Assembly (NCBI GenBank): GCA_030141605.1
Contig: JAQGDQ010000151.1
Location: 1-64,000 of the forward strand
Reading direction: 5' to 3'
Source: Tubiluchus corallicola
Taxonomy: Eukaryota; Animalia; Priapulida
Length of the DNA stretch: 64,000 nucleotides
The position numbers were made by a program, and so were the translations under genes. Shown here piece after piece: positions 8,101-38,299 of this stretch (position 1 is its first letter; the number at the start of each line of letters is the position of its first letter). A model generated the notes under the pieces. It searched no databases. It was not told the DNA's origin and saw only the letters and a program-made list of their open reading frames with translations.

Positions 8101-8924
8101 TCACAAATAATATTCTAGTTTTTTCTGTATAAAGACAATATCTTGACTTAATTCGTCTTCTCGCGGAGGTAACAAAGTTACTTCCATATACAGCATAGTT
8201 TCACCAATAAATGCCCGGATGTTCTCTAACTTTGTCATTATCGCCTCCTGGTTAACATGTTTCCCATCTGTAGTATGATATTCTGTTGTCATTGCATCAA
8301 TTGTTAGTTTATCAATGGGTATTGTTTTTAAAACATCAAGTTCTGCTCCTTCAATATCGAGTGACAAGTAGTCAATGTGATTGTGACCAATGGCTAACAT
8401 TATTGAGCAAAAGGAAAACACTGAACTGTGTGAGTTCTAACATTTTCAGTGCAGTTTAACTTTTTTATCCGTTTTCTATGAACAGGATCCGTGTTATTCT
8501 CTAACCCGCCTAACAACCCACACATTGTAAACCTTAGTCTTTCAGCCCTCTTACTAGGGCTTAAACAGGCATTGATAGAATAGGCATGCCGTTTCTCTTT
8601 TAGTAATTTATTAAACATTAGTGGGTTTGGTTCAATTAAGAGTCCTGTCCATCCGCGGTTCCTTTCAAAATACAAAGAATTGGAGATTACTCCATCTGCA
8701 GCACCACTTTCCACAAAAAAGCCTTTTCTCTTTTTTCTAAGTAGAATGTCTATAATCGTTGACTGAGACAGTTGTGAAGTATCATTTACTGGGCTTAAAT
8801 TAGATTTCCGTGATGGACCAATCAGCCATGAATTTTTAATGTGATTTACTAATACCTGGTCATCTTCAGCTATCCTACCATGTTGAACATCTAGTACAAT
8901 ATCAGAGCTAATAACTAAAAACAA
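8101..8924 (-). pseudogene. Protein Star-like / FkbM (Methyltransf_21) methyltransferase exon with a 1-nt frameshift near 8410
   Basis: GFFVESGAADG..SNSLYFERNRGWTGLLIEPNP and NACLS...VQCFPF continue in the adjacent frame as SIMLAIG...IDYLSLDIEGAELDVLKTIP. One extra T in the T-run restores a single frame. Confidence 0.8.
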
Positions 8925-11484
8925 AAGCGTACAATATTTGTTATTATCTTGGTTACGTCATCTTGAAAAACATTAATTATGCAAGCAGTTAATGCAAACA
9001 CAGCCACAGCATTAAATGCAACGTTAAATTGTTCACCACGAAATACTCTGTAAAATCGAAAAATGGACACAGTTTGATAAAATAACCCAGACTATTATTC
9101 AACATAACGGGAAAACACGAGTAATCTGCAAAGATGATAAATTTATGGAGCAGTCTTTTCTACCATGATAAAACCTCATTCCAAAACTCATCAATATGCT
9201 ACAAAGCAGTGATGATCTTTGTCGAACATGCATTCCACAAATCTTGTAAAACAATAAAGATTTAACTCGTTTTGATGAAAATGTGTGTCGCGATACGAGT
9301 CTTTTTGAAATATGGAAAATAGGTTGCACCAAAAATTAGTAAGCTTTCGTTTGTGATCAAGATATTTTATGAAACAATCAGTTACAGTTAAAGCATTACA
9401 AGTTGAAACATACTGAGAAACTGCGTTCAATGCAAAAGACAACGTGCAGCGTTATGTTTGAGCAGTACAACAGAAAACGGCATTCATCTTCATCAACACT
9501 GGAATCACTACAAACTCCATTTTCACGATTATAGGTGACCTTACGCATCTACCAGTTTCAACAGCCATTAGCAGTGTTGAAGAATTATCTTTAGTCAGCA
9601 AGTTCATCTTAGTAGTAAAGCTAAAACTTTACTACTGCCAAAAGTTGACAAGTGTAAAATTTCAATATTGATTACTGGTGTTCCTAGAGTACATAAAGAA
9701 GCCTACACAAAAATCCGTGTTAACGGGATTACAAAATGAAGCTGGTCAATGTACCAGACCTAAAACAAATGTTCATATGAGAAACTTTATGTAAGAATGG
9801 GAGCACAGAAGGTGAATTTCACATTAGTATGCAATGCAACGTTTACTGTCAAGAAACAACTGCGTTCTTGAGTCAAGTATCAGATATCTCTCCAGAATTC
9901 CCATCCATGTCTGATAAGGATAAGTTTATATTTTTAAAAAAAAGTGGAGATGTGGAAGTTAAGAAATTGTTGATTTACAAAGTTTAAGAATAAAATTTCA
10001 ACAATACGTGATTCTAAATTAAGAGGTACTACTATTAATTTATTATTAATGAAAACGATTAATGTGATATATAAGTAGATGAATTTGTTATAAATTGTGG
10101 TATTTTTTAATCAATTGCGTTTCAAAGAGCCCTGTATTTAAACCTGTAAGGACGTGTTCCTGGGTGCGCTGTTTATTTAAGTGTGTGATTTGTTAATTGT
10201 ATTTGTTTTCATGTTTTGTAAAATATAGACAAATTAACAGACAAACACGTGTATTGCGAACTGTAAAAATTGCTTGTACCTTCATACTGTGCTTTGAATT
10301 TTCTACCTGGTATTGTGCAGTCTACATCATAACTTTCTCTGAGCCAGCATACGTTGCAGCATCAGATGATGATAGCTGTGGCTGTGGTCGCCCACTTGGT
10401 GTGCTCAGGATAGGTACTATGGTGTTGTTTGTTCGATCCACAGTGTAAACAACTCCGAGTGGAGAACAAGCTGTTTGAAATGTTGACAAACAAATGTTAG
10501 CAACTGGAGGCTGTCCTGTCAGTAATTGCCTAAAAAATTGGACACTGGAAAAGTGATCATTCGCTTAACAGAATGCATACATTTCCTTCTAACAGCTTGT
10601 TGAGTGTTAACTTTAAACTTTGCTCTACAGATGAAGCAGACGGATGACCTGCTACTACTATGCCCCCAGGCTTACTCGCCTAGTTACGCAGATGTGGGAT
10701 TTGCCGTGGCTCTGCTTTCGGCTTGGGAGTAAAACACTCCTCATCTGTTGCTTCCATGGGTACTTACCATCTATTTTAATGCACTTGCATAACCCCCTCA
10801 ATCGCCCAGCTTCTGTAAGAGTCAAAATCAACCCACTGAAACAAATCTCTGTAATTTAGAAGTAACAAGTGGCACAAAGAAACACAAAAAGTTTGGACGC
10901 ATAAAAATACTCACCAAAACCTTTCAAGATATGCTATTCCGAGCAGACTATTCTAATAGGCAGTAGTTAATAAATTGCTCCACGTGATGAATTTTTACCG
11001 GGCTCCCACCTCCGATTTTGTTGATGAGCCCATTTGTGTCCCCTTGCATGTTATGTTCGTCTTTGTGTAAGAAGATATCATTTCGAAAGTTCTCTATGAG
11101 ACATTTAAAGATATTGACACACTCAAGTAATACCTTGTATCACAACTCGCCACATCACTAGAGACATCTCCACTTTGCATTTTTTTCAGATCAGAAAGGA
11201 GCAACACTATCATCGCCAATGTCTGTAGACTGTAATTGTTAGTGGGCTAGGTGATGTTCCGGAGTGGTAAACATTCATTTTCTCACCACCAAACGTTTGT
11301 ATATTTTAGCAAAGTATACTCAATGCATACATACACACTTGTGAGCAAAGTCTTCGGCAAGTGAGTTCAGCAAAGTGAGTTCACAAGTGAGTTCAGCAAA
11401 AAGTTTCGAAATTCGGCGAAATATTTTGCGGTAGCGACTCATCGCTTCCATATTTTTTGACCTGCCAGACGTTTAAAGAAAAAA

Positions 11485-12402
11485 ATGCGTCTTAAAATTT
11501 TTAGATTTACTTGGTTAGTGTTTGTGGTGCTTCTGATATTGTGCGTGTGCAAATACAAATTTGAAAGTAAAGGTTACTTCCGAAAAGTAAATATGTCGCA
11601 CATGTTGGCAACATATCAGGAGACAACAATATTTAAAATAGCAAAAGAAATAACAGCAAAAATCCTTTTAAGTCGTTTTGAACGAGATGCGCTATATCGA
11701 ACCCAGAAAATCAGCCATAGTGCTGTTATTACAGACAGGAAGGTTCTTTCCTACACTAAAGTTATCAGCTTTATTTCGTCAAAGAAAACATTTCCTTATA
11801 CAAGGTCGCTTTCTGTAGCAACTCAAACGTCTTGGGAGTACATGCATAATTTGCTGGATTTGGCTGAAATATTTGATGGACCAATATCTGCTGCCTTGTA
11901 CGTTCCAGGGGAAAGCTACGATTTTGCAATTGATAGAATTTTGCTGTACCGGAAATGCAATCGGCGATTTCTGAATTTAGTTACAGTCTCCCTCTTCTTT
12001 CCTTCACACAAAAAACCTTCAATTTCAGGAAACAAAACCGCATCCAAATCAACATGTTACGATATTATGCTGCCTCCTGTTAATGGTCCTGATATGTCTC
12101 AGTATGGGCCATATCCTGTAAACGTTGGTCGAAACACGGCTCGTCAGGCTGTTTATACGGAATACATTTTGCTGTTAGATGTGGAACTCAGGCCTACTCC
12201 AAACTTAGCAGAAAAGTTTTTCAAAATGTTAGATAGTTCATCTGTTTCTTGTGCCAATTCAGTGGGCTCCAAATTATCTTCATTCAGCAAAACTGTTTAC
12301 GTTATACCGCTATTTGAAGTAGCCCTTGATAAACGACTGCCAAACAACAAGTCAGAGTTGCTTGAGTTGCTCAAAAACGAGGAAGCGGTTGTATTTCATA
12401 AG
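11485..12402 (+). CDS. GT49 glycosyltransferase (B4GAT1/beta-1,4-glucuronyltransferase-like), coding exon 1
   Basis: N-terminal TM segment, then SVATQ, FDGPISAALY, YPVNVGRNTAR, ILLLDVEL (DxE), VYVIPLFEV, KSELL. Donor AAG|GTAATA at 12402/12403. Confidence 0.88.
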
Positions 12403-15400
12403 GTAATATACTCACTCTCAAGTTAACATACATACTCACTCTAGTGTTGTTTTACAATACTCTTATAATGTTTAAGCATAATTATAAACATAAATGTTAT
12501 GCATATTTTTTTAATCTCGTTTGGTGCAAAAACACTGGTGCCTTAAACAAACTGTGAAAGTCATGTATGAAGTTGTCGTTAAACACTTTGCAGAAAACGA
12601 ATGAACACCATATTACATATCTGCACAAAAACTGAAACACGTTTATTATACTAAATACACAGTAAAATACACAAGTAAAATGAAGATCACGACTGCTGCA
12701 CTGAGAGAGTGACAGAGAGACAGTGTGTAGCACGACTGCACTGCACTGATCACTAAGATTTAGACAGTGGCTAGAAGTGAAATCCAGCCAGTATATATAG
12801 GTAGAGAACTATGCAAAAACTTGGCTTCACATATCCCATTACAGTAAAAATAGGGGAGATCCAGTGAGTATGCATATTCACTGGACCGAGCAATTTTACT
12901 AAGGGTGAGTTTAACTAGTAAAATGTTAAAGTGACTAATCAATAGATGGCAGCACCTAAAATATACAGTTACAACTTTCACACAAACATCACATTTGTAT
13001 GTTTCTGGAAGACGATAACACATTCAGAAACCGTTTATCAAGGATACCTCAAAAACACCCAAAAACTTACTAGCAAAGCCCCGCAAAACTTTTTGCGGTA
13101 TCTATCTATTTCTATTTTTTGAATGTGTCTATTTCAAAGAATAATTGCATCATCATCATTTTCCTCATCACTCATTTTCAATTTCAACTAGGATGATGGT
13201 GAACAACATATAGGAACAAGACTTGCTTAATCGACCGACTTAATCGCATAATCATTAACGTTGAAAACAAAAACTCTTAGTCTATTAGGGTGCAACGCCA
13301 GCGTAATTTTCCCAACGTAAACTGCTATTTTCAAAACTGTTCGTTAAGATAGAGAAAAAAAAACGAACAGACAACACAAACTCTTAATACTGATTTAATA
13401 CCGAACTAATCAAAGATTTCAAAAACTGATAAAAAAGCTCATATAACAAATATATTCACTAACCTTGTGAAGTAATTACATTGATTAATTCTTAAAAGAA
13501 TTGAAAATTGAAGTAAAATTACAGATGTTCCCAATTAAGGTAACTAAAATGTCAATACTATACACGTACAGTTTGGCCTGTCAAGCTTTTAGGCTCAAAC
13601 TGTATGCATCAAAATTATTCTGTAATGTCATTTGCACATGTATATGCTGCATAAGAATCTTTTTTGTAATTTCTGGATAATATTGCTTTTATATATATAT
13701 ATATTTACTTCGGCGGAACATTATCTGTATTTTTATTATAACTGTAAGATGCAGTGTGGAAATAAATAAACTTTAAAAAATTAACTTAAAAAACAAACTT
13801 ATATACAACTTTGCTTTGATATTATCATTTTTTTTGTATTCTCGCACTTTAAATTTTATCAATGCACAAATAATTCTTACAAATCCAGTCTATTTGGTAC
13901 TCGCTCTACTCTTAAAGATCTGCGAAGTTTCGTTCACAAACGATGAGGCCTTTTTGCCAGGAGATGTGGTGATGCCACAATAGGAATAATTCCAGTCATT
14001 GAATCAATAATAGTCATTGAATGCAGCAGTTCGTGCATTATTTTTCATTTCAGTAGTCTAACATTGTCTACTAAATTTTTTGCTTACTTGAATACCAAAA
14101 TAAAAGTCTAATCCAGCAGTTTGAGGAAGGGGTTGAAGCCTTGCAGACCAGGAACTTGGGCCTATGCAGAGGTATTTTAGATATTGTGGTTTATCTGAAG
14201 TTTGTTCTGCATTTTGCACACTAGCAGCCGATAATAATTATGTACATCCATTTTGAAGTCAGACATTACTGAGGAATATGTGTAAAGCAAACAGTTTATA
14301 AGAATTTCTATTTAGAACTAACTGTTGCATGGGACATATTTTGTTTGGAGCCACAAATGAGCTGCTGTGTTTAGGTTATGACAAGGTATCTTTTATAAGA
14401 ATTAATTAATCAGGTTATAGATGTTTTGATAAGCAATTGTTTAAGCCGTTAGCGTTAATATTGTTTAATTCATATGTTAGTTTCGGTTTACAAACATTTT
14501 AAGTGCATGTTTAATCTATCATTTCTGACTTAATTATTTGCGCGCTATGCAGCAAGTAATCGTAGGCATTATGCAGGATAACGCCTGTTTTACCAATTCA
14601 TTTGGAAGAATTAGATTTATACGATAAACTAATAAAATTTAATCATGGTCCATTCAGTGCGCTTTTATTACTTGCTTTGTGCTAGCTTGTAAAACACAAG
14701 CGGCGGCACGTACCTAATATTAATAGGTGCTGCTTCAAAAAATTTCAGCTATTGTTTTAATACTGTGTAAAACGAACCAAATATATATTATTTTAATGTT
14801 ATAATTTACAATTGTAATTTAAATAAACAAACATACGAAATTTCATACACAAACTTGATAAAATCTTAAACAAAAAACATTTTTTGCTCACTAATAGCTT
14901 AAATTGTCGCAATTCAAGCTTGATCCACTCACGGTACTACAAACAACGAACTATGTGAGCGACAGCACTGCCAAACATTACGTTGCTGGAGTGCACTATG
15001 CTGGTTCCGTAGAGGTATAAAGAAGTAACTAAAGAAAAGGTATAATTTTAAATATCGATAATAACGTGTGAAAATAATGCAGTTCCACAATACCTATACA
15101 TGAGCCCCCACTGGAACTCAGTTCAACTTTAAGCCATACTACCATGGAAGGGCACCCATCGGAAAAAGAGTCGTATGTCTTGCTGAAATGCAATACAGCT
15201 TATAATAAAACTGCTTTTACTGTTTAGACAAAATTACGTGTTGCTTCACTTTGGAAGATCACGAGATCTGATTTACTCTAATGACTTGGTAGGTGCAGCT
15301 TGTAAGGCTTCTCACACATTCGTTAGGACTGTATTACTTAGCAACAGAAAGATGGGTTGTACAAATGGAATCTGAATTCAATTTTCTGCACTTTTCTACC

Positions 15401-18950: not shown

Positions 18951-19344
18951 TGTTAAGGCCAGGGTGAACCTGACTTAATAAATTTTAATTTTGTAGCAAA
19001 GGTGGCTCCATCTAGTTAGAAAAAGTGTGGGCACTGACCTAGTTATGTTTGTCATTATGCTGTTCGGTTGAATTAGTGAACATGTCTTGTACAAGCTAGT
19101 GAAATTTTTCATTTAGATGTATGCCGCAACGATGTAAGTTTACTTCTATTAATTTTTATTTTTATTTTGATTTATTCATTGATTCATTATTCATTAACAA
19201 TCTAACTAAATTAGCCAATGTTAGTCACCTTTACCTTTCTATTTTTTGTTTTGAAATTTTGCAGAAATAAAGATCAGTGGTTTACATGAAATTCACCTGA
19301 GACTTTTGAAGATTTGTTATAAATTCCTCTCAGAGACACTAACA
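18951..19344 (+). repeat. 5' LTR of the BEL/Pao element
   Basis: tgttaaggccagggtgaacctgacttaata...cagagacactaaca; direct repeat of 28258-28603; contains AATAAA. Confidence 0.92.
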
Positions 19345-20062
19345 TTTATTTATCGGCAAAATATCTACATGAGAAGTGTGCTATGAATGCAATAAAACTA
19401 TTTCGCCAAGCTGGGACACGGGCCGCCATTGCGAGGCTTCAAGGTCGCACGTACACTCACCTGGTTTACCTTGCTGCAAGTTGGAATTATTGATCGCCGC
19501 CTAGAGAAGCCAACGCGGGGTCAACTAGAGAACTTCCTATCTTCCACCTTGCTGCTAAAGTTAACTACTGGACAGGCAAGAACTAAAATAATTATGAACT
19601 GAGTTAGATATTTCCCACTAAATATTAAAGTGAGAAATTAGTGAATGAACTCTGTGGTGAAAGCTGGGAAAACGATTTCAAACACTTGTTCAAATGTTTA
19701 CCTCACAGTTTATGGCCTATAATGTTATTGAATGCTTGCTCTTACGCCTATTATAGCTAGTTTTGTATTGATCAGCTGTTTTAATGTTGTTGTCCGCTTT
19801 AGTTATTCTGCAGTACGTGGCCCAGATAAAATTTCTCCTATCCATGTTAAACGTGTGAAAATACCGTTATACAGCAACAGATATACCGAAAAATAGGTTG
19901 ACAACTACAGTTACTAAATTGCACTTTCGTATAGGAGTTACAATATTTACTGGTGCACAATTACAGTTTGTAATTTTGAGTGTTGTACTTAATTTATGAT
20001 AATACTTCTCTTATTGATTTGCCAATAATTTTGCCAAATTATAGCAAATTAACAGGTACAAC

Positions 20063-23000
20063 ATGGATGATCTGGAAAAGAAAACTGTAAAAGAATTAAG
20101 AGAAATTCTCAAAGAAAAGGGGTTGTCCACGGCAGGCCTAAAAGAGCAGCTCATCTCACGCCTTAGAAATGCGATGGCCCAAGGAGAAAGTGACAGTGAG
20201 CAGGCAGCTTCTAGCCTTAAAAGTGCACGTAATGCTCAGAGTGTCAAGACAGTTGCTCATTCAGCTGCTTCATCTGCGTCAGTGCGGCTGGCAGCTGCCG
20301 AAGCCAAAAAACCATCCCTCCTGATACAAAGGCAAGCTTTGGTTGATCAAGCAAAGCTTGAAGAAGAGGAACTTAAGCTTGAACAAATGAAGAAAAATCT
20401 TGATTTAGAGAGGAAGCGGCTTGAGATTGACAGAAAGGTCCAAGAAGCAGAGGCACATGCTGCAATCTATGCTCAATTTGAGGAAGCACGCTCCAAGCGC
20501 AGCGACACCTTTGGTAAGGAAAAGGTCACTGACTGGGTAAATCGCGTTAAAGGCAAAGATAACGCAATATTGGATCAAGTATATGTAACTCTAGCTACTA
20601 ATGACACATATGCTAAGAGCGCTTTGGTATTAGCACAAACTCTTAAGGATAGTGGTACACGACGTAGTTTAGTCATTATGGTCACACAGAAGGGTGTATC
20701 ACCTGCTTTAGTTACTTTACTTCAGGATGTTTTTGACGAAGTTGAGGAAATTGAAGAATGGCGGAGTGGTGACAATGACGCAGTCCTCCTCCAGCAGCAC
20801 CCAGAATTAGAGGTTACATATTCGAAACTCTACTGCTGGTCTCTAACACGTTATAATAAAGGAGTGTTTATGGAATCTGATACTATTGTGTTACAAAATA
20901 TTGATGAACTTTTCCAAAATGAAGAGTTTGCAGCAGCTCCAGATGTGGGATGGCCAGATCTCTTTAATAGTGGAGTATTTGTCTTTAAACCTAGTATGGG
21001 TACATACAGACAATTGATATCCTTCGCTGCTTCACACTCCAGCTTTGATGGAGGTGATCAAGGCTTGCTCAATAAATTCTTTTCTTCCTGGACACGCCTT
21101 TCATTCGTTTATAACGTGACAACCGCCAGTACATACGGTTACTTTTTAACCCTGTCTGAGTTCAGGGACCGCTTGAAAGTTATTCACTTTATAGGTGACA
21201 TAAAGCCATGGCATTACAGCTATGACGAAAGAACTGGAGCTATTGTCTATTCATATGGGCAGGGATATGCGCATAAAGAAGAGTACGTAAGAAGATGGTG
21301 GAAAATCTTTTCCGTAAAAGTCAAACCTTTTCTTTCTAGTTATGCTCATGAAGAGGTCCTGCTATCCATGAACCCGCATGCAACTGAATATAAGCCAGAA
21401 CCAAAAGCTGAATTTGATTCAGTTGAAAGGGCTTCAGCTCCTAGATGTTATAGATGCTGTGACCCTCAGATGCATGCATACCCTGAAACAACACCAAGGT
21501 TTGATGTAAGACCACATCAAACATATAATGTAAGCAGTCCACAGATGGAAAGAACTCCGCTGATGATAAGGCAGCCTCATACCGGCACAGCGTCTCCATT
21601 AACTTACAATTTTCCATTACCAAGCATAGAATTACCAGTGTTTAATGGAAATGAGTTGGATTACACCCGCTTTATAAGAAGATTTGAAACGACAGTGGAG
21701 AACTACACTACTGACAGTGTTGCACGATTGGCACTATTGGTACAGTTCTGTAGTGAAAAAGTAAGAAAGTACATTGATTGTTGCCTTAACATGGAGCCAA
21801 ACATTGGATATGAACGAGCCAAACAAATGTTAAAAGAAAGATACGGTGATGAGTTTATTATAACGCAAGCTTGGATAAGGAAAATCACAGAGTTCAAGAT
21901 CATTAAGGCATCGGAACCAGAAGTGCTCAGGGATTATGCAGACACTCTAAGATGTTGTTTTAAATCTCTTGCTGCTATGGGTCACCTGGCTGAAATCAAC
22001 ACTCAGGGAAATTTGGCAAAAATTATTGACAAGCTCCCAGTGCACCAACATGCTACCTGGAGGAAAGAGGTGTATAAAATTCGTGCATCAGGCAAAGAAC
22101 CACGTATCACAGACGTTGTCAAATTTGTTGAGATGATAGCCAAAGTGGAGAATGACCATATATATCGAAGGAAGTCACAGGAGATACCAGAGCGTTCCAA
22201 AACAAAACTAAGGTATAATCCTGTGAGAAATTTTGCAAGTTCTAGCAGTCTTCCACAACGTGAAGATGTTGATCAAAGTCAACAGAAGCAATTTCCTTGC
22301 AAGTTGTGTGAACGGTTCCATTCACTTCAGGCATGTCCCAAGTTTAAGCACTTGTCAATAAGTGAACGACAGGAGATTGTAAAACAACACAGCTTGTGCT
22401 TTAATTGTCTTAAACCAAACCACACAAGCCGTGCTTGCAGATCAACAAGACGGTGTGATGTTTGTAAACGAAAACACTCCGTTTTCCTGCACCTTAGGTC
22501 AGAAGAGCAGTGTAAGAAGTTGCAGGGTGGTCAAAAGACTGAAGTGCCAAAGGCTCCCGTTCCAGTACCTTCTGTAAAAGAAGAAAGCACAACTCCACAT
22601 CAGCGCTTTGAAAAGCCAGGCTCAAATGCTCAAAGTGGATACATCGACATTGATGCTAATCCAGGAAAGGGTACAGCTTTGCCCATATTGCCAGTGTTGG
22701 TGAATATTCCCGGAAAGCAACCAATTAAGACATTAGCACTTTTAGATAACGGCTCTACCAACACATTTTGTTCTGAGAAACTGTACCAAGAGCTTGGCAT
22801 TAAAGGAAGAAATGATTTCCTGTCTTTGACAACACTTCAGGGAAAAGAATCTAAGACCCCTACCAAGATCGTTAGATTACAGGTCATGCCATGCGATGGA
22901 TCAAACTGCATCAATTTGCCAATTGTTTTTACTAGACCCTCATTAATGATGGATGCTGAATCTCTGCCAGATGTCAAACACATTGAAAGATGGCCTCACT

Positions 23001-23791
23001 TGCAAGATATTGACCTGCCATGTAAGGATAATCTTCACCTAGACTTAGGTCTACTAATTGGACAAGATAACCCCGATGCATTAGCTCCTATTGAGTTCAG
23101 ACGTGGACCTCTGAGTGCACCTTGGGCTACCAAAACGAGATTAGGTTGGACTTTGAATGGACCAGTTGGTTCTAATAAACGGAAAACCATCTGGTGTAAC
23201 TCTATTCAGACTGGTAGCGATGACCTGGAAGAACTAGTGGAGAGGTTTTGGAAGCTAGAATCTTATACAGATGAGACTAAATTTTCGATTGAAGATAAAA
23301 GGGCCTTAAAGATTTGGGAGGACTCTGCTGTTCTGATGCCAGATGGTCATTATCAAATGAATATCCCATTTAGGTCAGAGAACCCTCAACTGCCAGATAA
23401 TTTAGTCATGGCTGAAACACGTCTTGAGAATTTGCGCAAAAGGCTTCAACGAGACAAAGTTCTTCGTGAAAAGTATACACAAGAAATTACCACGCTGTTG
23501 GACAGTGGGCATGCTGAACCAGTCGAAAATAACGACATTGGAATACCCGGAAAGGTGTGGTATCTACCCCACTTTGCAGTTCACCAAGAATCTCGTCCAG
23601 AAAAAACCAGAGTTGTGTTTGATTGTCGAGCCAGTTTTGCAGGAACTACATTGAACAAGGTTGTTCTACAAGGACCTGACTTTACAAATAAGCTGCTGGG
23701 TGTATTGTTAAGATTCAGAGAAAATCCAATAGCAGTCACAGCAGATATACAGAAGATGTTTTATCAGGTGAGGATTCCTATGGTGGCCTGA
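20063..23791 (+). CDS. BEL/Pao Gag-Pol N-terminal polyprotein: SAP domain, coiled coil, glycogenin (GT8), PAM2-like motif, DUF1759-type Gag, 3 zinc knuckles, aspartic protease, start of RT
   Basis: SAP: LEKKTVKELREILKEKGLSTAGLKEQLISRL. GT8: VTLATND, SKLYCW, AAPDVGWPDLFNSGVFV, FDGGDQGLLN, HFIGDIKPW. Gag: LPVFNG...ERYG. Knuckles: CKLCERFHSLQAC, CFNCLKPNHTSRAC, CDVCKRKHSVFLH. Protease: ALLDNGS. RT: YLPH, RVVFD, ADIQKMF. The frame is lost near 23770 by a small deletion. Confidence 0.95.
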   Translation: MDDLEKKTVKELREILKEKGLSTAGLKEQLISRLRNAMAQGESDSEQAASSLKSARNAQSVKTVAHSAASSASVRLAAAEAKKPSLLIQRQALVDQAKLEEEELKLEQMKKNLDLERKRLEIDRKVQEAEAHAAIYAQFEEARSKRSDTFGKEKVTDWVNRVKGKDNAILDQVYVTLATNDTYAKSALVLAQTLKDSGTRRSLVIMVTQKGVSPALVTLLQDVFDEVEEIEEWRSGDNDAVLLQQHPELEVTYSKLYCWSLTRYNKGVFMESDTIVLQNIDELFQNEEFAAAPDVGWPDLFNSGVFVFKPSMGTYRQLISFAASHSSFDGGDQGLLNKFFSSWTRLSFVYNVTTASTYGYFLTLSEFRDRLKVIHFIGDIKPWHYSYDERTGAIVYSYGQGYAHKEEYVRRWWKIFSVKVKPFLSSYAHEEVLLSMNPHATEYKPEPKAEFDSVERASAPRCYRCCDPQMHAYPETTPRFDVRPHQTYNVSSPQMERTPLMIRQPHTGTASPLTYNFPLPSIELPVFNGNELDYTRFIRRFETTVENYTTDSVARLALLVQFCSEKVRKYIDCCLNMEPNIGYERAKQMLKERYGDEFIITQAWIRKITEFKIIKASEPEVLRDYADTLRCCFKSLAAMGHLAEINTQGNLAKIIDKLPVHQHATWRKEVYKIRASGKEPRITDVVKFVEMIAKVENDHIYRRKSQEIPERSKTKLRYNPVRNFASSSSLPQREDVDQSQQKQFPCKLCERFHSLQACPKFKHLSISERQEIVKQHSLCFNCLKPNHTSRACRSTRRCDVCKRKHSVFLHLRSEEQCKKLQGGQKTEVPKAPVPVPSVKEESTTPHQRFEKPGSNAQSGYIDIDANPGKGTALPILPVLVNIPGKQPIKTLALLDNGSTNTFCSEKLYQELGIKGRNDFLSLTTLQGKESKTPTKIVRLQVMPCDGSNCINLPIVFTRPSLMMDAESLPDVKHIERWPHLQDIDLPCKDNLHLDLGLLIGQDNPDALAPIEFRRGPLSAPWATKTRLGWTLNGPVGSNKRKTIWCNSIQTGSDDLEELVERFWKLESYTDETKFSIEDKRALKIWEDSAVLMPDGHYQMNIPFRSENPQLPDNLVMAETRLENLRKRLQRDKVLREKYTQEITTLLDSGHAEPVENNDIGIPGKVWYLPHFAVHQESRPEKTRVVFDCRASFAGTTLNKVVLQGPDFTNKLLGVLLRFRENPIAVTADIQKMFYQVRIPMVA
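20573..21335 (+). other. Captured glycogenin catalytic domain within Gag (about aa 171-424)
   Basis: Colinear with animal glycogenin-1 as I recall it, from DQAFVTLTTND (here DQVYVTLATND) to WWNIFTTNVLPLL (here WWKIFSVKVKPFL). Confidence 0.93.
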
Positions 23792-26750
23792 TGGGGATTT
23801 GGAAAAGACGCCTAAAGTTTACAGAATGACTGTACATGTATTTGGGGGTGTATGGTGTCCGAGCATAACCACCTTCTCACTTCAAAGAACCGCCAAGGAG
23901 AACCGCAGTTTGTATGAAGAATCGGTCATCCAGACAATTCTTAGGAACTTCTATGTAGACGATTGTTTGTCCTCCTTTAAGACGAATGAGGAAGCTATCC
24001 ATACTGTTCAACAGTTATTAGAGCTTCTGCATCTCGGCGGATTTCACTTGACCAAGTGGAGCAGCAATAGTAAACAGGTTATCCAGTCCATACCCCCAGA
24101 TGAAAGAGGAAAGCAGATCAAGGATCTAGATTTAGAAGCCAGCTCTTTACCCACTGAAAAGGTGCTCGGAATCTGCTGGAACATGGAAACTGACATGCTC
24201 ACCATCCAGATTAAAGACAAGATCAAGCCAGCAACCCGTCGAGGACTTCTGAGCTTACTGTCTTCAGTATATGATCCGCTTGGTATGTATATTGAATGCA
24301 AATATCCTTCAAGCTAAGCTACTATTCCAAGAAGAATGCCGGCAAGGCAAAGGCTGGGATGATGAACTTCAGCCTCAAGTAAGGAGACAGTGGACAAACT
24401 GGCTATCTGTGTTGCAGAATTTGCAAGCAGTTCAACTTGACCGCTGTTATACACCTTCACAGTTTGGAGATGTAGAGGTATACCAACTGCATCATTTTTC
24501 AGATGCCTCTGAAAAGGCATATGGAACTGTGACTTACCTTCGAATGACAAATTCATCTGGAGATGTATTATGCAGTTTCGTCATAAGCAAATCCCGTCTT
24601 GCGCCTTTAAGAGGTGGAATATCAATGCCTCGTCTGGAGCTTTCAGCTGCTGTGCTGTCAGCCAAGATAGATCACATGCTAAGGAAGGAATTCACCATAA
24701 AACTAGCTGAATCAGTTTTCTGGACCGATAGCACCATCACTTTGGGATACATAAACAATATATCCGCCCGATATAAAACATTTGTGTCAAATAGAGTGGC
24801 AATCATCCATGACTTGTCTTCACCACATCAGTGGCGTCATGTGCCTGGAAATGAAAACCCTGCCAATGATGCGTCTAGGGGTCTGCCTGCAGATAAACTT
24901 GTAGCTGATACACGTTGGCTGCATGGACCTTCCTTTTTGTATGAACCAGAAGCCAGCTGGCCATGTTTCAAAGTAGAAAGGGCAATAGAAATTTCTGATC
25001 CAGAACTAAAGAAAAATCAGTCACAGGCTTATGCAGCTGTTTGTCGACATGATGATGTTATAGACAAGCTGTACCAACATTACAGTTCTTTCTATCTTTC
25101 TACAGGCTAAAGAAAGCAGTGGCATGGTTGAAAATAACGACATTGGAATACCCGGAAAGGTGTGGTATCTACCCCACTTTGCAGTTCACCAAGAATCTCG
25201 TCCAGAAAAAACCAGAGTTGTGTTTGATTGTCGAGCCAGTTTTGCAGGAACTACATTGAACAAGGTTGTTCTACAAGGTCCTGATCTTACAAATAAGCTG
25301 CTGGGTGTATTGTTAAGATTCAGAGAAAATCCAATAGCAGTCACAGCAGATATACAGAAGATGTTTTATCAGGTGAGGGTGCCTCCTAAAGATCGGAATG
25401 TCCTGAGATTCCTATGGTGGCCTGATGGGGATTTGTTTACAGTTTAAGAATGACTATACATGTATTTGGGGGTGTATGGTGTCCGAGCATAGCCACCTTC
25501 TCACTCCAAAGAACCGCCAAGGAGAACCGCAGTTTGTATGAAGAATCGGTCGTCCAGACAATTCTTAGGAACTTCTATGTAGACGATTGTTTGTCCTCCT
25601 TTAAGACGAATGAGGAAGCTATTCATACTGTTCAGCAGTTATTAGAGCTTCTGCATCTTGGCGGATTTCACTTGACCAAGTGGAGCAGCAATAGTAAACA
25701 GGTTATCCAGTCCATAGCCCCAGATGAAAGAGGAAAGCAGATCAAGGATCTAGATTTAGAAGCCAGCTCTTTACCCACTGAAAAGGTGCTCGGAATCTGC
25801 TGGAACATGGAAACTGACATGTTCACCATCCAGATTAAAGACAAGATCAAGCCAGCAACCCGCCGAGGACTTCAGAGCTTACTGTCTTCAGTATATGATC
25901 CGCTTGGTATATTGAATCCAAATATCCTTCAAGCTAAGTTACTATTCCAAGAAGAATGCCGGCAAGGCAAAGGCTGGGATGATGAACTTCAGCCTCAAGT
26001 AAGGAGACAATGGATAAACTGGCTATCCGAGTTGCAGAATTTGCAAGCAGTTCAACTTGACCGCTGTTATACACCTTCACAGTTTGGAGATGTAGAGGTA
26101 TACCAACTACATCATTTTTTAGATGCCTCTGAAAAGGCATATGGAACTGTGACTTACCTTCGAATGACAAATTCATCTGGAGATGTATTATGCAGTTTCG
26201 TCATAAGCAAATCCCGTCTTGCGCCTTTAAGAGGTGGAATATCAATGCCTCGTCTGGAGCTTTCAGCTGCTGTGCTGTCAGCCAAGATAGATCACATGCT
26301 AAGGAAGGAATTCACCATAAAACTAACTGAATCAGTTTTCTGGATCGATAGCACCATCACTTTGGGATACATAAACAATGTATCCGCGCGATATAAAACA
26401 TTTGTGTCAAATAGAGTGGCAATCATCCATGACTTGTCTTCACCACATCAGTGGCGTCATGTGCCTGGAAATGAAAACCCTGCCAATGATGCGTCTAGGG
26501 GTCTGCCTGCAGATAAACTTGTAGCTGATACACGTTGGCTGCATGGACCTTCCTTTTTGTATGAACCAGAAGCCAGCTGGCCATGTTTCAAAGTAGAAAG
26601 GGCAATAGAAATTTCTGATCCAGAACTAAAGAAAAATCAGTCACAGGCTTATGCAGCTGTTTGTCGACATGATGATGTTATAGACAAGCTGTACCAACAT
26701 TACAGTTCTTTCTATCTTTCTACAGGCTAAAGAAAGCAGTGGCATGGTTG
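23525..26750 (+). repeat. Internal tandem duplication (~1.6 kb) of the RT-RNase H region: copy 1 ~23525-25130, copy 2 ~25130-26750
   Basis: Near-identical sequence and translations in both copies ([16 protein letters not shown]...YVDD...RLEL...YSSFYLSTG). Confidence 0.95.
25124..26730 (+). pseudogene. BEL/Pao RT and RNase H (copy 2, interrupted)
   Basis: ADIQKMF, LRFLW, NFYVDD, YDPLG, DASEKAYG, PRLEL, NPANDASRG; stop and frame break near 25445. Confidence 0.9.
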
Positions 26751-28166
26751 TTACGCTTGAAAGAGATCCTAAGAAATAGGCTTGGAAATCAACCAATCCA
26801 GCAAGCAAGATCCAACTTGACAGTAGAAGAACTGAAAGCCGCTGAGAATGCCATTATCAAGCACATCCAAAGATGTTACTTCTCTGAGGAATATGAAAGC
26901 TTGTCTATGGGACAACCGCTTCACAAAAGAAGTAAAATAGCTGCTTTAGATCCATACATCTCTACTGATGATACAATAAGAGTCGGTGGTCGACTCACTA
27001 GAGCATTTATCTGTGAGACTGCAAAGCATCCAGTGATTATTCCCAAGGATCACCAAGTTGCCACTTTGATTATTAGAAACTGTCATGAACAAAACGGCCA
27101 TGCCGGGCGAGAACACGTGGTGGCACTTATAAGGACTTCCTATTGGATTATTGGAATCAGGCCTCTAACTAAAAGAGTTCTTCGTGCCTGTCGCATTTGT
27201 CGTCGATTATTCGGGAAGTCGATGCAGCAAAAAATGTCTGATCTCCCAGTAGATCGCATCACGGGAGGTCGTGCCTTCAGCTCAGTTGGCATAGACTGTT
27301 TTGGTCCCTTTGAAGTGGTGAGAGGAAGAACAAGAGTAAAACGTTATGGTTGCATTTTTACCTGTGCCGCCATAAGAGCTGTGCATCTTGAAGTACTTGC
27401 CTCTATGGAGACTGATTCATTTATCCAAGCCTTGCACAGGTTCATTGCTAGCAGAGGTAAACCTGACATACTAAGATCTGACAGGGGAACTAACTTTACT
27501 GGTGCCGAAAAGGAACTACGGCAATCATTACAAGAGCTCGACCAAGAAAAGATCCACTGCAGCTTAAGACAGATGAACATCCAATGGATCTTCAATCCAC
27601 CCACAGCGTCACACTTTGGAGGGTTTTGGGAACGACTTATAAGATCCGTCAGGCGAATACTTGCGGGAGTGCTAAATCAACAGACAGTTGACGATGAGAG
27701 GTTAGCCACTCTCTTTTGTCTTGTAGAGTCCATACTAAACAGCAGACCACTTACAGTCACGTCAAGTGATTTCAGAGATGCCGAACCACTAACTCCGAAC
27801 CATCTGTTATTATTGCACTCCAACTCATTGTCAGCTCCTGGTATCTTCTCAATAGCTGACAGATACAAAAGAAAATGGCGCCAGACACAGTATGTTGCCG
27901 AACTTTTCTGGTCAAGATGGTATAAGGAATACCTTCCAACATTGCAATCCAGAACAAGATGGCTGAGAAAGCATAACAACTTGAAAGTTGGAGATGTAGT
28001 TCTCATTTGTGACAAAGTTCCCAGGAATCAGTGGGTTCTTGGATGTGTTGATGATGTTCATGCTAGTGATGATGGGATTATTCGATCTGTTACAGTAAAA
28101 GCCAGTAACAATGCTTCTTTAGTACGCCCCATTACTAAATTATGTTTAATTGAGAGCCTCGGATAG
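26739..28166 (+). CDS. BEL/Pao integrase plus DUF5641-type C-terminus (separated from RNase H by a frameshift)
   Basis: HHCC (HEQNGHAG...CRIC), DDE triad (GIDCFGP, SDRGTNF, FWERLI), LTPNHLL, FWSRWYKEYL, RPITKL. Confidence 0.92.
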   Translation: MAWLLRLKEILRNRLGNQPIQQARSNLTVEELKAAENAIIKHIQRCYFSEEYESLSMGQPLHKRSKIAALDPYISTDDTIRVGGRLTRAFICETAKHPVIIPKDHQVATLIIRNCHEQNGHAGREHVVALIRTSYWIIGIRPLTKRVLRACRICRRLFGKSMQQKMSDLPVDRITGGRAFSSVGIDCFGPFEVVRGRTRVKRYGCIFTCAAIRAVHLEVLASMETDSFIQALHRFIASRGKPDILRSDRGTNFTGAEKELRQSLQELDQEKIHCSLRQMNIQWIFNPPTASHFGGFWERLIRSVRRILAGVLNQQTVDDERLATLFCLVESILNSRPLTVTSSDFRDAEPLTPNHLLLLHSNSLSAPGIFSIADRYKRKWRQTQYVAELFWSRWYKEYLPTLQSRTRWLRKHNNLKVGDVVLICDKVPRNQWVLGCVDDVHASDDGIIRSVTVKASNNASLVRPITKLCLIESLG

Positions 28167-28247: not shown

Positions 28248-28257
28248 AAGGGGGGAG
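28248..28257 (+). promoter_or_regulatory. Polypurine tract of the BEL/Pao element
   Basis: aaggggggag directly abuts the TG of the 3' LTR. Confidence 0.85.
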
Positions 28258-28603
28258 TGTTAAGGCCAGTGTGAACCTGACTTAATAAATTTTAATTTTG
28301 TAGCGAAGGTGGCTCCATCTAGCTAGACAGTTTGAAGTGTGGGCATTGACCTAGTTACGTTTTTTCATTTATGCTGTGAACATGTGAGTGAACATGTGTC
28401 TTGTAGAAGCTAGTGAAATTTTCATTTAGATATATGCCGCAACGATGTAAGTTTACTTCTATTAATTTTTATTTTGATTTATTCATTGATATTTATGAAT
28501 GGACTAAACTATGTAACAATCTATCTAAATTAGCTTTCTATTTTTTTTGTTTAAAATGTTGCAGAAATAAAGATCAGTGGTTTATCTCTCAGAGACACTA
28601 ACA
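28258..28603 (+). repeat. 3' LTR of the BEL/Pao element
   Basis: tgttaaggccagtgtgaacctgac...cagagacactaaca. Confidence 0.92.
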
Positions 28604-29599: not shown

Positions 29600-31150
29600 C
29601 GGGATTACTCATCTAAAGAACAAGCTTGTGAATTGGTCTGTCATATACAAATTTGTGGTCCTTATTTCAACCTTACGTACAATGATCCTCTCCAGGATAA
29701 GCTTCTGTGACTCTTGGCATGGGCCAATGACATCGTGGCAGGGTTTCATCAACCTTTAGAACTGTCGCCAATACATAGGTTTCTTTAGCGCTGTATCCAG
29801 TTTTGCCTTTTTTGGAGTATAAGGAGGAATTTCTTATGTATAAGTAGGAATTTCTTATGTCAGGACTTTCAAAACTCGTTTGCAAGGAACTAAACTCGCC
29901 TCCATTGTCGGTGACGATACAAGTCTCTCAGAAAATGTCCAGGTGGTGGAGAAACAACATCTGCCTTTAGAGTAAGAATCTGACTCTACTCTACTGACAA
30001 AAGGCATTGCTTACATAAATTCACAGGATACACTATTTTCCTAGAAAGACGAGCTTTCCAAATACAACCACCCATGTGAGTCAGAGCATCTTTGTCTATA
30101 AATAGATCCAGTCGGCAGAGTGAACTACTTTTCTTCACTTGTGAAGTAGACCGCTTATTGCTTGAAAGGCTTGTGCCACTCCAAAAAAGCAAACTCCTCA
30201 GAAAATGCTTGCCTTTGTACAAAACCTAAATTTCCTTTTTCTGCCTCTCGCATTTCATCAACAGTGACTGGAACTTAGGTATTGCATATTGCATTTCTTT
30301 TAGTACTGCATTCTAACAGCTTTTTCTTTAAATGTAGGCATACTGCTATCGCTTTTTTAGCCTTGTACCAACTAGAAAACAAATTCAACTGGGATAGGAT
30401 ATCAGGCAATGCAACTGCTCGTGTTTTATGACTAGCTTTTCTAACCTTTTGGATCTAAGCCAGGAAAAGATTGACTAGGTAGTGGAGCTATGGCTTGAAG
30501 AATTGGAGGGCCTTTCTACTCAGCTCATTGTGCATCAATTCACTGGCTGTTGAACCTCGTGAAGCTATGTCAGCCGGATTGTCAGAAGTGCTAATATGCC
30601 TCCATTATATTGGGGATGTATGCTCTCTAATTTTTTCAACTCGGTTTGCCACATAGCATAGTGAAATCATTTAGATTCGTTGGAGATGTAGCCTAAGGCT
30701 ATATTGCTGTTTGACCAATAGTAGTGGTGCTTGACCAGATTATGAAAAAACTGGAGCTCCTCGTCCAGAAAAACACTATTTTTAACTGCTGTGGCGGCAG
30801 CAATGAGCTCTAATAGTAATAGTAATAGACTTCGTAAGGGCAACTCGAGATTTTGTCATTACTACGGATGTAGCAACCAATTATTAACTACACTCACCAT
30901 AACCACTCAAAAGCAGGTGTCGGAAAAATGGTGTAGTTCTACATACTTAACAGTGCCGTAATTCTGTGGCTTGTAACACCTGGGAATCTTAAGTTGCAAT
31001 CACGTCATTTCGCCACTTAGTCCATTGATGTCTAACATCATCATTTAGTGGCTCATCTCAGTCATGTCCATCATGGGATATATCTTGCAGATATTTTCGG
31101 CCAATATATATTAAAGGGGAAACTACGCCTAGACAATCAAAGAGAACTTA
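29600..31150 (-). mobile_element. Degenerate BEL/Pao pol fragment, minus strand
   Basis: Minus-strand ELHHFSD, VMTKSRVA, LELIAAATAV, WRHISTSDNPADIASRG, and the DUF5641-like VDETLPRCHWPMPRVTEAYPGED. Confidence 0.8.
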
Positions 31151-31227: not shown

Positions 31228-34200
31228 ATGTTGGAGAAAACTTCACTTTTGCAACGCTTGCTACCTATAACTACTCCTGAACTTTTTAAAGGTGACAGTG
31301 ACAAGTTAAAATTCTGCCTTTGGGAGGCAAGCTTCGAAAGCTTAATTTCACAAGTGCCTATTCCTGGTGAGATAAATTCACATCACATATGCCACTATTT
31401 GCCACTAGCTGGAGATGCACTGGGTGTTGTAGAACACTATAGGTATTTGCTGGGTGACCCAGTATCTGCTTACTATCAAGCTGGAGAAGAATTGCTTCAA
31501 CGCTATGGTTCAGAAAGCACAATCGCTGCTGAAATAAAGAGGAAAATTCTATACGAGCCCAGGTTGCCAATTGCTGATTTTTTTAAATGAGATGTTAGGA
31601 TTCAGCAATACAATGCTAGGGCTAAGTATTTTTAATTATCCATCTTATGTAATATATATATATATAAATTTCCATTATTGTGGATGAGTACTAAGTGGAA
31701 AAAGGAAGTAGCAAGTTATAAAGAGAATTATGGTTCAGCAATGCACCCTCAGTTTAAAGATCTTGTACAGTTTGTTAACAAACAGGCTAATACAGGTAAC
31801 CTTCCTGAGTACCTTGATAATGAAGATAATAAGAATGATAATCGAAAGGACAATGTACGTAAACAGTGCAAACTAGCTGGTTCTTACAGGTGCTCAGACA
31901 GTAGAGTTTTTAGTACCAGTGTTAACAAACTAGAGTTACCAAATACTGCTGTATGCAATGTAACTTTGTCTACTAATTTTACTCAGTCGTCTGTCTAACG
32001 TGGCCCAGTGTGTAACCAGAAACATGATCTGGAAGTACTTCTACTCAAGTTCGCTTCGTGTATGATGCTAGTGAGAAGAACAAAGCTGACGGTAAAAGCT
32101 TGAACAACCTAATACATGCTGGACCATATCTACTTACTAACCTGGTTGGAATTTTACTACGTTTTCGCCTTTTTGAAATCATCATGCTAGCAGACATTGA
32201 AGAAGCATTCCATCAAGCTTCACTAGTGGAAGAGACAGAGATACTGTCAGATTTCTATGGCTGAAAGATCCATCACAGCCTGATGGACAACATCAAGGTA
32301 TATTGCCTTACCAGACTTCCATTTAGTGTCAATGCATCTCCATTTTTACTACTAGCTACTATCACTTACAAGGAGAAGACCCTATGGAGATATTCCAGTC
32401 AGCAAAGAACATACAATATGGCAGCAATGAATTTACGCCAGTGGCTTTCAAATGATCTCAAGTTTAATGAAGCCTACCACAATGGGACCATCCACAAGGT
32501 ACTACAGTGAAAGTACTGAGAATTATTTGTGATGCTGCTAATAATGTAATAAGACTACAGTACAATTTCTACCACTAGAAGTGTATACCAGAAGACCAGC
32601 AATGTAACAGCTTGCTAGACTATATGATCCGCTTGGAATCTACCTGCCAGTAACCATCAAAGGAAAGATTTTGCTACACAGAAGTACGGTCTGGACGAGC
32701 CAGTTACAGTTACGGTTTTAGAGTGACAGAAATTAGAAGAAGAACTGAAAAACATTCCACAAATAACACTTCCATGCAGTGTCATCGTGGATAAACAAGT
32801 TCATGTTCAACTACTATGTCTCACAGATGCCAGTAAAGATGCAGGTGCATATATTCATCAACGTTTAGATAACCACGTTATATCCTCATTAACATTTGCG
32901 AAGTCTCAGGTAGCGACATTGAGAGTTAGTCAAACTCTACCATGGCTAGAACTAGAAGCCATGGGATGCAGGATGCTTCGATTTGTAGAAAAGCAGATTG
33001 ATCAACCATTGCTAGATAAACACTTATGGACAGAGTCACAAATTGTGCTCTGTTGGATTCACTCAACCAAAGTTTTACTACCCTATATAGAAAGACGCCG
33101 AAGTGAAATAATGTCTATGGATGATATCCAGTTTAGATACATCAACACTAAAGCCAATCCTGCTTATTGGGGCACATGCGGAATCTCAGCAAAGAAATTA
33201 TGTGAGTGCAACTGGATTTGTGGACCAGAATGGTTATCACTAGAGACTGAACAGTGGCCAAAATGGAGTACAAACACCAACATACAGTTGCCAAAGTTGA
33301 GTCATTCAAGAGAAACACTGACAGCTTTAGTTACAGTAATGGAGGAGAGACCTGCCGTTTACCCCTTTGGTATAGATGTTAATAACTTCAGCGACTATGA
33401 CTAGCTCTGAAGAGTAACCAGCTACTGCCAGAGATTCATGGGACAGGTGCCACAAAAAGAAGATACCAGAATCAATAATATCACTGCAGATAAGATGATT
33501 GAAGTACATACGATGTGGATTAAACAAGTTCAACAGGATTGCTTCTCAATCGAATTCAAGCTTCTACACCATGGCAAATTTAATCAACTGATAAAACAAC
33601 TAGGTCTCCACACTGACAAAGGTGTTTTATGCTGGGGGGGGGAAGCTTGCTAATGCAATCACCGATCAATCAATGTTTCCAATTCTGCTACCTAGATGTC
33701 ATTTTACAGAGCTAATCACCACAAAAGCTCACAGGAGAACCTTGCATTCTGGAGTTAAAGCTACTCTAGCTGAGATTTAACAAACAATATTGGATTCCAC
33801 AAGGTTATACAACAGTGTGGAAAACTTTGTCTAAGTGTCTCCTATGCCAAAAGAATCAAGGAGGAACATTCAAACCACCAAAATGGCTCAACTACCAATG
33901 GAACGTCTCTGCAGGGCACCGGCATTTTAATTTACAGGGATGGATTACATAGGACCAATGCTCATTCATGCCAAGCCAGGTGAATATCATGAGAAGAGAT
34001 GGGTAGCATTTTATGCACTTGCTTCACAACACGGGTGGTCCAGTTGGAAATTGTTCAGAATTAGTCAGCAAGGGCCACTGTTCAAGCAATATTTCGCTTC
34101 ATTAGCAGAAGAGGTTGTCCAGCAGTTATCCTGAGTGACAACACTACATATTTCAGGAAGACTGAAGCACTGCTGATGCAATATTTTGCATAACAACGAA

Positions 34201-34822
34201 TCCGCTAGAAATATATTCCCCAGAGGTCACGTGGCGTATGAGTGTCTTGTGGGAGTGATTAAGCAGGCCATGAAGAAAGCTCTGTGGAAAGCTACGTTAA
34301 ACAACAATGGACTGTAAACTCTCATAATGCAGATCAAAAGTCTGATGAACACTAGGCCACTGCTTAACATTTCATCGAGTCCTGAAGAACTCACAATGTT
34401 GACACCAGCTAACTTCATCATGCGTATGGGAAAACTAAGCATTTCTACAACGGACGAAGATGTTTTGGACGATGCAGATGGGCAACCGAAAGCTAGATCA
34501 GTTTTGGAGTGTATGGCATAAGCACTATCTACACTCATTGAGAAAAACCCACCAAGTGCACTTTCGATGGGAACGTGCAGAAATCCCAGGAAAACCTACA
34601 GTTGGAGAAGTTTCCCTGATTCAAGATGCTACTCCACGTGCAACATTGAAGATTGGAAAGATTTTAGACTTCCTACCTTCACAAGATGGCGAGGTGCGCT
34701 TTGTCAGCATCAAGCTCCCAACTGGTTATGTAACGAGAAGAGGGGTGAAAGATTTGGTTCCCTTAGAAACGAGTTTCGAGGCAGGTGAAACTAAAGACAC
34801 TACACAACTGTTGACATGCTGA
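31228..34822 (+). mobile_element. Degenerate BEL/Pao element(s): gag, RT, RNase H, integrase and DUF5641 remnants
   Basis: PELFKGD...FESLI; VYDAS...SLN..IHAGP...GILLRFR...ADIEEAF; TDASK, TLPWLEL, NPA; MDYIGP; LTPANF; FWSVWHKHYL...SQDGEVR. Many stops and frameshifts. Confidence 0.88.
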
Positions 34823-37388: not shown

Positions 37389-37715
37389 GGCGCTATTACA
37401 CTTTCGCACCTAGTTTTTTCTGGCCTATTATTTGTTTTCACGCCTGCAGGCCAGAAAACAGACCAACAGGCGTAATATACACCATATTCTCATAATATTA
37501 TTGGTTTATAGGCCTTACAATTCCAGATTAAAGTCATACATTACTTACCGTCACCAACACGCAAGAAACTCCACGTGAATAACTGTTTACACCACTCATG
37601 CGCAATCGCTCTCGCGCAGTGACGTCTGTGGCCCTTAACCGGTGTTTTTAGTTTCTTTGCATTATGATTATTATGGTGGCACCCATGGGAGTTTGTATAG
37701 TATTACAGTGTTCCC
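37389..37715. mobile_element. Truncated copy of the MITE at 38300-38970, in the opposite orientation
   Basis: Starts with the TIR ggcgctattacactttcgcacc and is a diverged reverse complement of ~38635-38970. Confidence 0.8.
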
Positions 37716-38023
37716 TCGCTACTTCAAAAATATTAATGTAAAATATTTATCGCGATATCTTCGCTGTTCGCTATAATAGCTTAGCCAGTCAATTTAATGA
37801 ATTGAGTCAACAATTTGAGACTCACAACAAAACCTTGAAGGCTCAAGCTTCTCAAATTTTTCATTAAAGGACTCACAGGTGCAACAAACATTAACTCAAC
37901 AAATCCAACATTTACCAAAATTTTCCGGCGAACCTAAACTGGCACTTTGAAATATCGAGATTGGATTGATAATATCGAACAATCTTTAAAGTTAACTCCG
38001 ACTTTATTAACTTCACGAGCTAC

Positions 38024-38236: not shown

Positions 38237-38251
38237 TGGTAGTACGGATGG
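38237..38251 (+). promoter_or_regulatory. Primer-binding site, degenerate tRNA-iMet type
   Basis: tggtagtacggatgg directly follows the LTR; compare TGGTAGCAGAGGATGG, the complement of the initiator tRNA-Met 3' end. Confidence 0.6.
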
Positions 38252-38299
38252 AAGTTATCGGCAAGTGCTTAACTACTGATACGCTGATAACATCACTTC

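Follow-up and report, generated by a model that had tools for sequence, protein, structure and literature searches.

The 64,000-nt stretch of Tubiluchus corallicola DNA analysed here (contig JAQGDQ010000151.1 of assembly GCA_030141605.1, positions 1-64,000, forward strand; hereafter the window) contains a BEL/Pao retrotransposon whose Gag carries, in frame, the catalytic domain of glycogenin, the self-glucosylating primer of glycogen synthesis. We favour, with an even degree of belief, the explanation that selection has kept this captured glycogenin in a multi-copy BEL/Pao family, where it would serve Gag as a dimeric and probably active module that glucosylates itself. Selection on the domain is likely, and catalytic activity of the dominant form of the family is, judged from its sequence, slightly favoured. 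The copy in the window is itself decayed.

The open reading frame (ORF) at 20063-23791 is free of stops over 1242 aa and lies between two long terminal repeats (LTRs). As the preliminary description of this DNA stated, it reads SAP, coiled coil, glycogenin, Gag core, zinc knuckles, protease and the start of the reverse transcriptase (RT), and this order is borne out by the ORF itself, Pfam and blastp. The Pfam domains SAP, Glyco_transf_8 (aa 175-385, E 6.5e-18) and DUF1759, anticipated there, were found in the ORF, as was an aspartyl protease, the last two as matches below the Pfam curated cut-offs; Peptidase_A17, integrase and DUF5641 lie downstream of the ORF. The features of the element are as follows.

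18951..19344, plus strand: 5' LTR, TG...CA, 394 bp (LTR alignment; loose contig ends cluster at 18953 and 19344)
20063..23791, plus strand: Gag-Pol ORF, 1242 aa, with a premature end in RT (ORF translation)
20069..20173, plus strand: SAP domain, aa 3-37 (Pfam PF02037, E 3.3e-10)
20231..20554, plus strand: native Gag coiled-coil region, aa 57-164 (blastp to BEL/Pao Gags P0371, E 1e-6, and P0378, E 2e-5)
20573..21343, plus strand: glycogenin catalytic domain, aa 171-427, in frame and free of introns, one loop shortened by a 6-residue in-frame deletion (Pfam, GYG1 alignment, model)
20873..20881, plus strand: DxD site, E-S-D in the window copy (alignment)
21134..21136, plus strand: Tyr358, aligned to human acceptor Tyr195 (GYG1 alignment)
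21368..21391, plus strand: native Gag linker motif MNPHATEY, directly after the glycogenin insert (same motif in glycogenin-free Gags P0360 and P0371)
21641..22072, plus strand: Gag core, DUF1759, aa 527-670 (Pfam, blastp)
22298..22492, plus strand: three zinc knuckles, CCHC, CCHC and CCHH (read from the translation)
22706..22930, plus strand: aspartic protease, LLDNGS, aa 882-956 (Pfam)
23522..25130, plus strand: RT-RNase H, first tandem copy (A), with breaks near 23772, 24283 and 25100
25127..26750, plus strand: RT-RNase H, second tandem copy (B), with breaks near 25434-25446 and 26720
26676..28166, plus strand: integrase (H2C2, rve, DUF5641) in a separate frame (ORF list, Pfam)
28248..28257, plus strand: polypurine tract, just before the 3' LTR
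28258..28603, plus strand: 3' LTR, 346 bp, 90.4% alike to the 5' LTR

Residues 171-427 of the ORF align to residues 3-264 of human GYG1 (E 1.5e-79); the insert thus starts at the natural N-terminus, stops where the catalytic domain stops and is interrupted neither by an intron nor by a shift of frame, in agreement with the limits first proposed for the domain. All of the glycogenin motifs named earlier (VTLATND, KLxCW, APDxGWPDxFNSG, FDGGDQGLLN, YxY and HFxGxxKPW) are present. The domain is about 50% identical to animal glycogenins; its mean identity to 239 animal glycogenin domains is 47%, compared with 63% among those 239. An AlphaFold model of it has a predicted local distance difference test (pLDDT) value of 89.9 and a template modelling (TM) score of 0.92 to rabbit glycogenin. 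Both YxY tyrosines are kept, and Tyr358 aligns with Tyr195, described as the glucose acceptor of human glycogenin-1 (PMC7046021). On the other hand, the C-terminal WExGxxDY tail, described as binding glycogen synthase (PMC9287172) and present in 295 of 385 fetched glycogenins, is absent from the element. Thus, the element carries the glycogenin catalytic domain and no complete glycogenin, and it is unlikely to join the glycogen synthase complex because this tail is missing.

A model of two copies of the domain pairs them through the APDxGWPD loop (domain residues 123-130) with a score of 0.51 against 0.00 for the best control, and the runs agree in 82% of contacts with pLDDT 82. This mark was reached by 21 of 30 solved pairs and by none of 23 single chains, and in eukaryotes by one of seven pairs without a solved relative; the predicted dimer may therefore be a memory of the solved glycogenin dimer.

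Native Gag sequence borders the domain on both sides. The coiled coil before it is matched by glycogenin-free BEL/Pao Gags (P0371, P0378), and the LNPxAxxW-type motif after it also occurs in glycogenin-free Gags (P0360, P0371), followed by the Gag core. Glycogenin was therefore inserted into a variable linker of an ordinary Gag. The linker motif MNPHATEY presumably resembles PAM2. The SAP domain at the Gag N-terminus (20069-20173) was absent from all four related Gags scanned and is for this reason perhaps a second acquisition.

The element belongs to BEL/Pao (Belpaoviridae) according to the profile of the International Committee on Taxonomy of Viruses, which gives LTRs of 0.2-1.2 kb, a polypurine tract of about 10 nt before the 3' LTR and a primer-binding site for tRNA-Arg or tRNA-Gly (PMC8742986). 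Its LTRs of 394 and 346 bp fall within this range, and the order Gag-protease-RT-RNase H-integrase, with the Pao-type domains PF03564, PF05380, PF00665 and PF18701, is colinear with P0378. BEL/Pao relatives matched it by blastp at E 1e-96 to 1e-171. No primer-binding site for either tRNA was recognised by eye in 19345-19400. A target-site duplication is an expected feature of BEL/Pao insertions; no clean one is seen here (flanks CCAAG and CAGAG), and we read this as a later rearrangement of the window copy, not as a trait of the family.

The fusion is supported by sequencing data. Four of the six listed public runs (X1-X4), from two studies, contain the stretch, and a further run, X5, contains next to none of it. 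The 5' junction is bridged by contigs of X1 (20117-20612) and X3 (20101-20931), and the 3' junction by contigs of X3 (20953-22134) and X4 (21091-21706), with at least 31 bases on each side. X3 comes from the second study and is independent of the window assembly; its host exons differ by 3-4% (41 bases in about 960 and 12 in about 400). Since the junctions are bridged by contigs of two studies, they are no misassembly, the first possibility that the preliminary description had set against its claim. That all other copies might lack the domain was the second, and it is not borne out either: in X1 the seven contigs that span the N-terminus, glycogenin, Gag core and RT have a depth of 517-630, so that glycogenin is as deep as the Gag core and RT, whereas seven flank contigs have 90-93 and 156-172. 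This corresponds to about six haploid equivalents in X1, suggesting some six copies in a diploid genome, and to about five in X2, figures that serve as a rough gauge only, as contig depth is no true copy number. In X3 the depth of the element is 1.4-1.9 times that of host-exon contigs. Glycogenin is thus family-wide as far as depth shows.

Several further sequences related to the element were seen in the runs. A deleted derivative in X1 and X2 joins the 5' untranslated region at 19813 to the middle of glycogenin at 20779; over 218 bases it shows 26 differences and 19 gap letters, a divergence of about 12%, and its depth in X1 is 89. Because this diverged derivative already carries glycogenin, the capture is older than the present copies. 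The LTRs have about 60 times the depth of the coding region, pointing to hundreds of solo LTRs or derivatives, many perhaps non-autonomous; the 5' LTR abuts another high-copy repeat. Moreover, contigs of X2, X3 and X4 match only the FDGGDQG stretch at 21041-21074 and are unlike the window on both sides of it, and the depth of this bin is raised in all four runs (about 2400 in X1 and about 490 in X3, if confined to the 34 bases). This signal possibly comes from a further glycogenin-like repeat of higher abundance or from an expansion of the host family.

The window copy shows decay. Its metal-binding DxD reads E-S-D and its Arg77 site reads His; substitution of Asp102 is described as a human disease allele (PMC7046021). 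The dominant contigs of X1, X2 and X3 carry the canonical DxD, and the dominant contigs keep the Arg77 site. Among the 40 of 309 rows of window-to-contig differences that were examined, 13 differences from the dominant contigs fall in the domain, and 10 of these are nonsynonymous, equal to the 77% expected at random. Further downstream, the Gag-Pol ORF stops early in RT at a 29-base gap near 23772, and RT-RNase H is duplicated in tandem over 1.6 kb, with halves that differ by 30 substitutions in 1595 bases and are both broken. Dating of the insertion by LTR divergence was rejected, as the two LTRs, identical at 303 of 335 aligned bases (90.4%), differ by 9.6%, which conflicts with an internal region only 1.3% different from the X1 contigs (35 of 2769 bases). 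The diverged LTRs and the missing target-site duplication, despite this small internal difference, suggest that one LTR was probably exchanged later. In the preliminary description the domain was an mRNA-derived capture kept as a functional Gag module. The capture stands, with a real intronless fusion, several copies, a second study and site-specific conservation; the word "functional" does not hold for the window copy, which has lost the canonical DxD and has a broken pol, and can apply only to the dominant form of the family.

An open frame alone was rejected as a sign of function, because Gag-Pol downstream of the domain needs an open frame anyway. We therefore compared the domain with the 239 animal glycogenin domains, taking columns conserved at 97% or more as near-invariant. 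The window copy keeps 66 of the 76 near-invariant columns and 49 of the 112 columns conserved at 50-97%, whereas uniform decay predicts that 44 of the 76 would be kept (P 3e-8). Three of the ten near-invariant departures, DxD included, are not shared by the dominant run contigs. Kept sites in the GYG1 alignment include the equivalents of Asp104, Asn133, Asp160, Asp163, Gln164, Tyr195, His212 and Lys218, which we take to bind metal, donor and acceptor. The conservation is site-specific and exceeds what an open frame needs. This comparison does not distinguish selection on the fold from selection on catalysis, and it excludes conservation in a lost or fast-evolving donor paralog only in part. 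In a quick tree of 90 rows the domain lies inside the animal clade (SH-aLRT 99) on the longest animal branch (0.96 against a median of 0.24); its neighbours there have support of 81-86 and do not place the donor lineage. At four sites of the domain, no run has more than a single contig with a likeness of at least 80%, and this speaks against a close host donor.

Several observations weigh against the favoured explanation. X1 matches the window flanks nearly letter for letter and is probably no independent sample. The 12%-diverged derivative also lacks the dominant letters at the DxD site (dominant depth 581 of 670), so E-S-D may be an older shared variant instead of private decay, or the derivative may have a gap there. 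The break before the integrase is common to both tandem halves of pol, so that the family may or may not be autonomous. Seven near-invariant residues still differ where contigs were compared, including Pro-Ala just after the acceptor tyrosines, and the 6-residue loop deletion is shared with only 6 of the 239 host glycogenins. Conservation of core residues could reflect selection only for folding inside an essential polyprotein, or could stem from a fast-evolving or lost host paralog before the capture. Finally, R707 of mimivirus is described as keeping DxD and Tyr and yet showing no self-glucosylation (PMC9614988).

Some of these points would suit a domain kept as a structural module for dimerisation or binding, cross-linking Gag or pairing with host glycogenin, in which catalysis is incidental. 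We think this unlikely, though deserving of attention: the APDxGWPD loop is intact and forms the predicted interface, E-S-D is perhaps present in more than one lineage and residues of the acceptor arm have changed, but the polar active-site positions Asn133, Asp160, Asp163, Gln164, His212 and Lys218, with little obvious role in folding, have been kept over a branch of 0.96, and the dominant contigs retain DxD and the Arg77 site. The changes beside the acceptor tyrosines and in the nearby loop, together with the kept donor-site residues, could also mean an active glucosyltransferase that modifies another acceptor, for example elsewhere in Gag or on a host protein of silencing or restriction, and not its own tyrosine. 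R707 offers a precedent (PMC9614988). From sequence, however, such an enzyme seems improbable, as both YxY tyrosines are kept, the domain has an identity of about 50% to true glycogenins, compared with 26% in the case of R707, and no target is known.

A tolerated passenger, namely a retrocopy of a fast-evolving host glycogenin paralog that fell into a permissive Gag linker and was amplified a few times, its conservation predating the capture, is in our opinion likewise improbable. The few copies (about six) and the random proportion of nonsynonymous differences would agree with it, and LTR-borne retrocopies, often in frame, are described as common in animals (PMC5131818). That neutral ratio is nevertheless expected of any dead genomic copy after insertion; moreover, no second contig of such likeness appears at the four domain sites, the 12%-diverged derivative already bears glycogenin and the fusion is present in the second study. 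The rearranged state of the window element, with its mismatched LTRs, missing target-site duplication and tandem pol duplication, could be taken as a sign of an assembly artefact or of a one-off insertion in a single dead copy. With both junctions bridged in runs of two studies and glycogenin as deep as the Gag core and RT, we regard this as very nearly negligible.

A selected, self-glucosylating Gag module could have arisen and could work as follows. The precedent of LTR-mediated retroposition (PMC5131818) suggests that the domain was captured long ago from a spliced host mRNA by template switching. The whole catalytic domain would then have settled in frame in the variable Gag linker, between two native motifs. 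Its copies are predicted to dimerise via the APDxGWPD loop, with Gag multimerisation holding many of them together, and the enzyme would attach glucose to a tyrosine of its own, so that short glucose chains would decorate the particle. The parts N-terminal to the capsid core face outward in retroviral and Ty3 capsids, and outward display is predicted here because the domain has this position. On the particle exterior it would produce a short glucan coat. With the C-terminal tail missing, the usual recruitment of glycogen synthase would not take place; the human catalytic domain by itself, once glucosylated, is described as binding the glycogen-targeting protein PTG (PMC9287172), and binding of the PTG type could bring the module to glycogen-associated proteins even in the absence of the tail. 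A tentative idea, more doubtful than probable, is that the domain is displayed on the outside of the particle and that the glucan coat docks to granules or to host proteins that bind glycogen. It is more speculative to suppose that a retrotransposon lineage coats its Gag-glycogenin particles with self-made glucose chains that mimic nascent glycogen granules, the second glycogenin-like repeat perhaps being a sister lineage of an old, diversified strategy. If the favoured explanation is true, a retrotransposon would glycosylate proteins by means of a metabolic enzyme inside its own capsid polyprotein, and glycogen metabolism would be tied to the assembly of particles or to germline delivery. The central claim can be tested directly, because this small domain has a confidently predicted fold and a standard assay exists for it.

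The rest of the window holds host exons and other repeats. Host exons encode a galactosyltransferase (PF01762, 3326-3931, minus strand) and a Glyco_transf_49 domain (11461-12426, plus strand), and another exon (8400-8957, minus strand) has the look of an FkbM-type methyltransferase by eye, with no Pfam match; this glycosyltransferase neighbourhood appears coincidental. Two more decayed BEL/Pao remnants lie at 29700-31150 (minus strand) and 32030-34420 (plus strand). A Gypsy-type RT, RNase H and integrase (39513-42192) fall within 37400-43500, a region with 98-99% direct and inverted repeats of 160-300 bp and a Gag-like ORF (42472-43485). Duplicated 1.6-kb units with unassigned ORFs at 46287-46859 and 47916-48809, and a GT-rich array with 0.8-kb repeats, occupy 45700-54600, and the C-terminus of a non-LTR retrotransposon RT with a C2H2 finger lies at 60175-61059.

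Searches for a similar fusion gave little. None was present in 120 of the 214 long glycogenin matches listed or in 31 matches to the whole Gag. Among the best 150 of 18,877 matches in 1.84 billion protein representatives, the top one (280 bits) is glycogenin alone; a real fusion would far outscore this, so there is none among those matches, though retroelement ORFs are under-annotated. Of 392 fetched proteins, none matched Gag or Pol as well as glycogenin, with no match to the N-terminal query at the cut-off used, and ten glycogenin matches with N-terminal extensions had no retroelement Pfam domain. A metagenome scan left one of 157 candidates, a 25% GT8 match; none of eight viral contigs had the fusion, and the ESM Atlas gave no usable match. 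The preliminary description knew of no LTR retrotransposon with glycogenin cargo, and we likewise found none by title or abstract start, with subscription journals, Repbase and supplements outside this scope; Repbase entries could hold a glycogenin-bearing family.

With BEL/Pao the element shares the LTRs, the polypurine tract, the three-knuckle Gag, the protease-RT-RNase H-integrase order and the Peptidase_A17, DUF1759 and DUF5641 domains, and relatives such as the sea star protein P0388 are 36-40% identical to it. It differs in the 257-residue enzyme domain inside Gag, which all four related Gags scanned lack, and under the terms looked for in a BEL/Pao survey (PMC3118150) the text mentions no extra Gag domain. 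It resembles animal glycogenin (GYG1, GT8) in fold, motifs, acceptor tyrosine and predicted dimer, whereas its domain has no introns, linker or synthase-binding tail, is embedded in Gag and sits on a long branch. The nearest cases are R707 and the selected mRNA captures in crocodilian endogenous retroviruses (ERVs) (PMC4299795), as these are described. Mimivirus R707 is likewise a viral enzyme of the glycogenin type, with a proposed role in glycosylating virion proteins, but it is described as the product of a separate gene of a giant DNA virus, with 26% identity to glycogenin and no self-glucosylation (PMC9614988); the element, in contrast, has a Gag fusion in a retroelement with about 50% identity. 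LTR-mediated retrocopies (PMC5131818) and the KIT-ligand and nectin3 sequences in crocodilian ERVs (PMC4299795) are similar as intronless host coding sequences between LTRs, in multiple copies and with signs of purifying selection. Their descriptions speak of additional ORFs, or of chimeras in which the elements are discontinuous, whereas the cargo here is an internal in-frame Gag domain and every retroelement domain is still present. LTR elements are known to capture host genes, mostly as additional cargo or in place of their own sequence, and what appears new here, within the searches above, is an enzyme within the capsid polyprotein.

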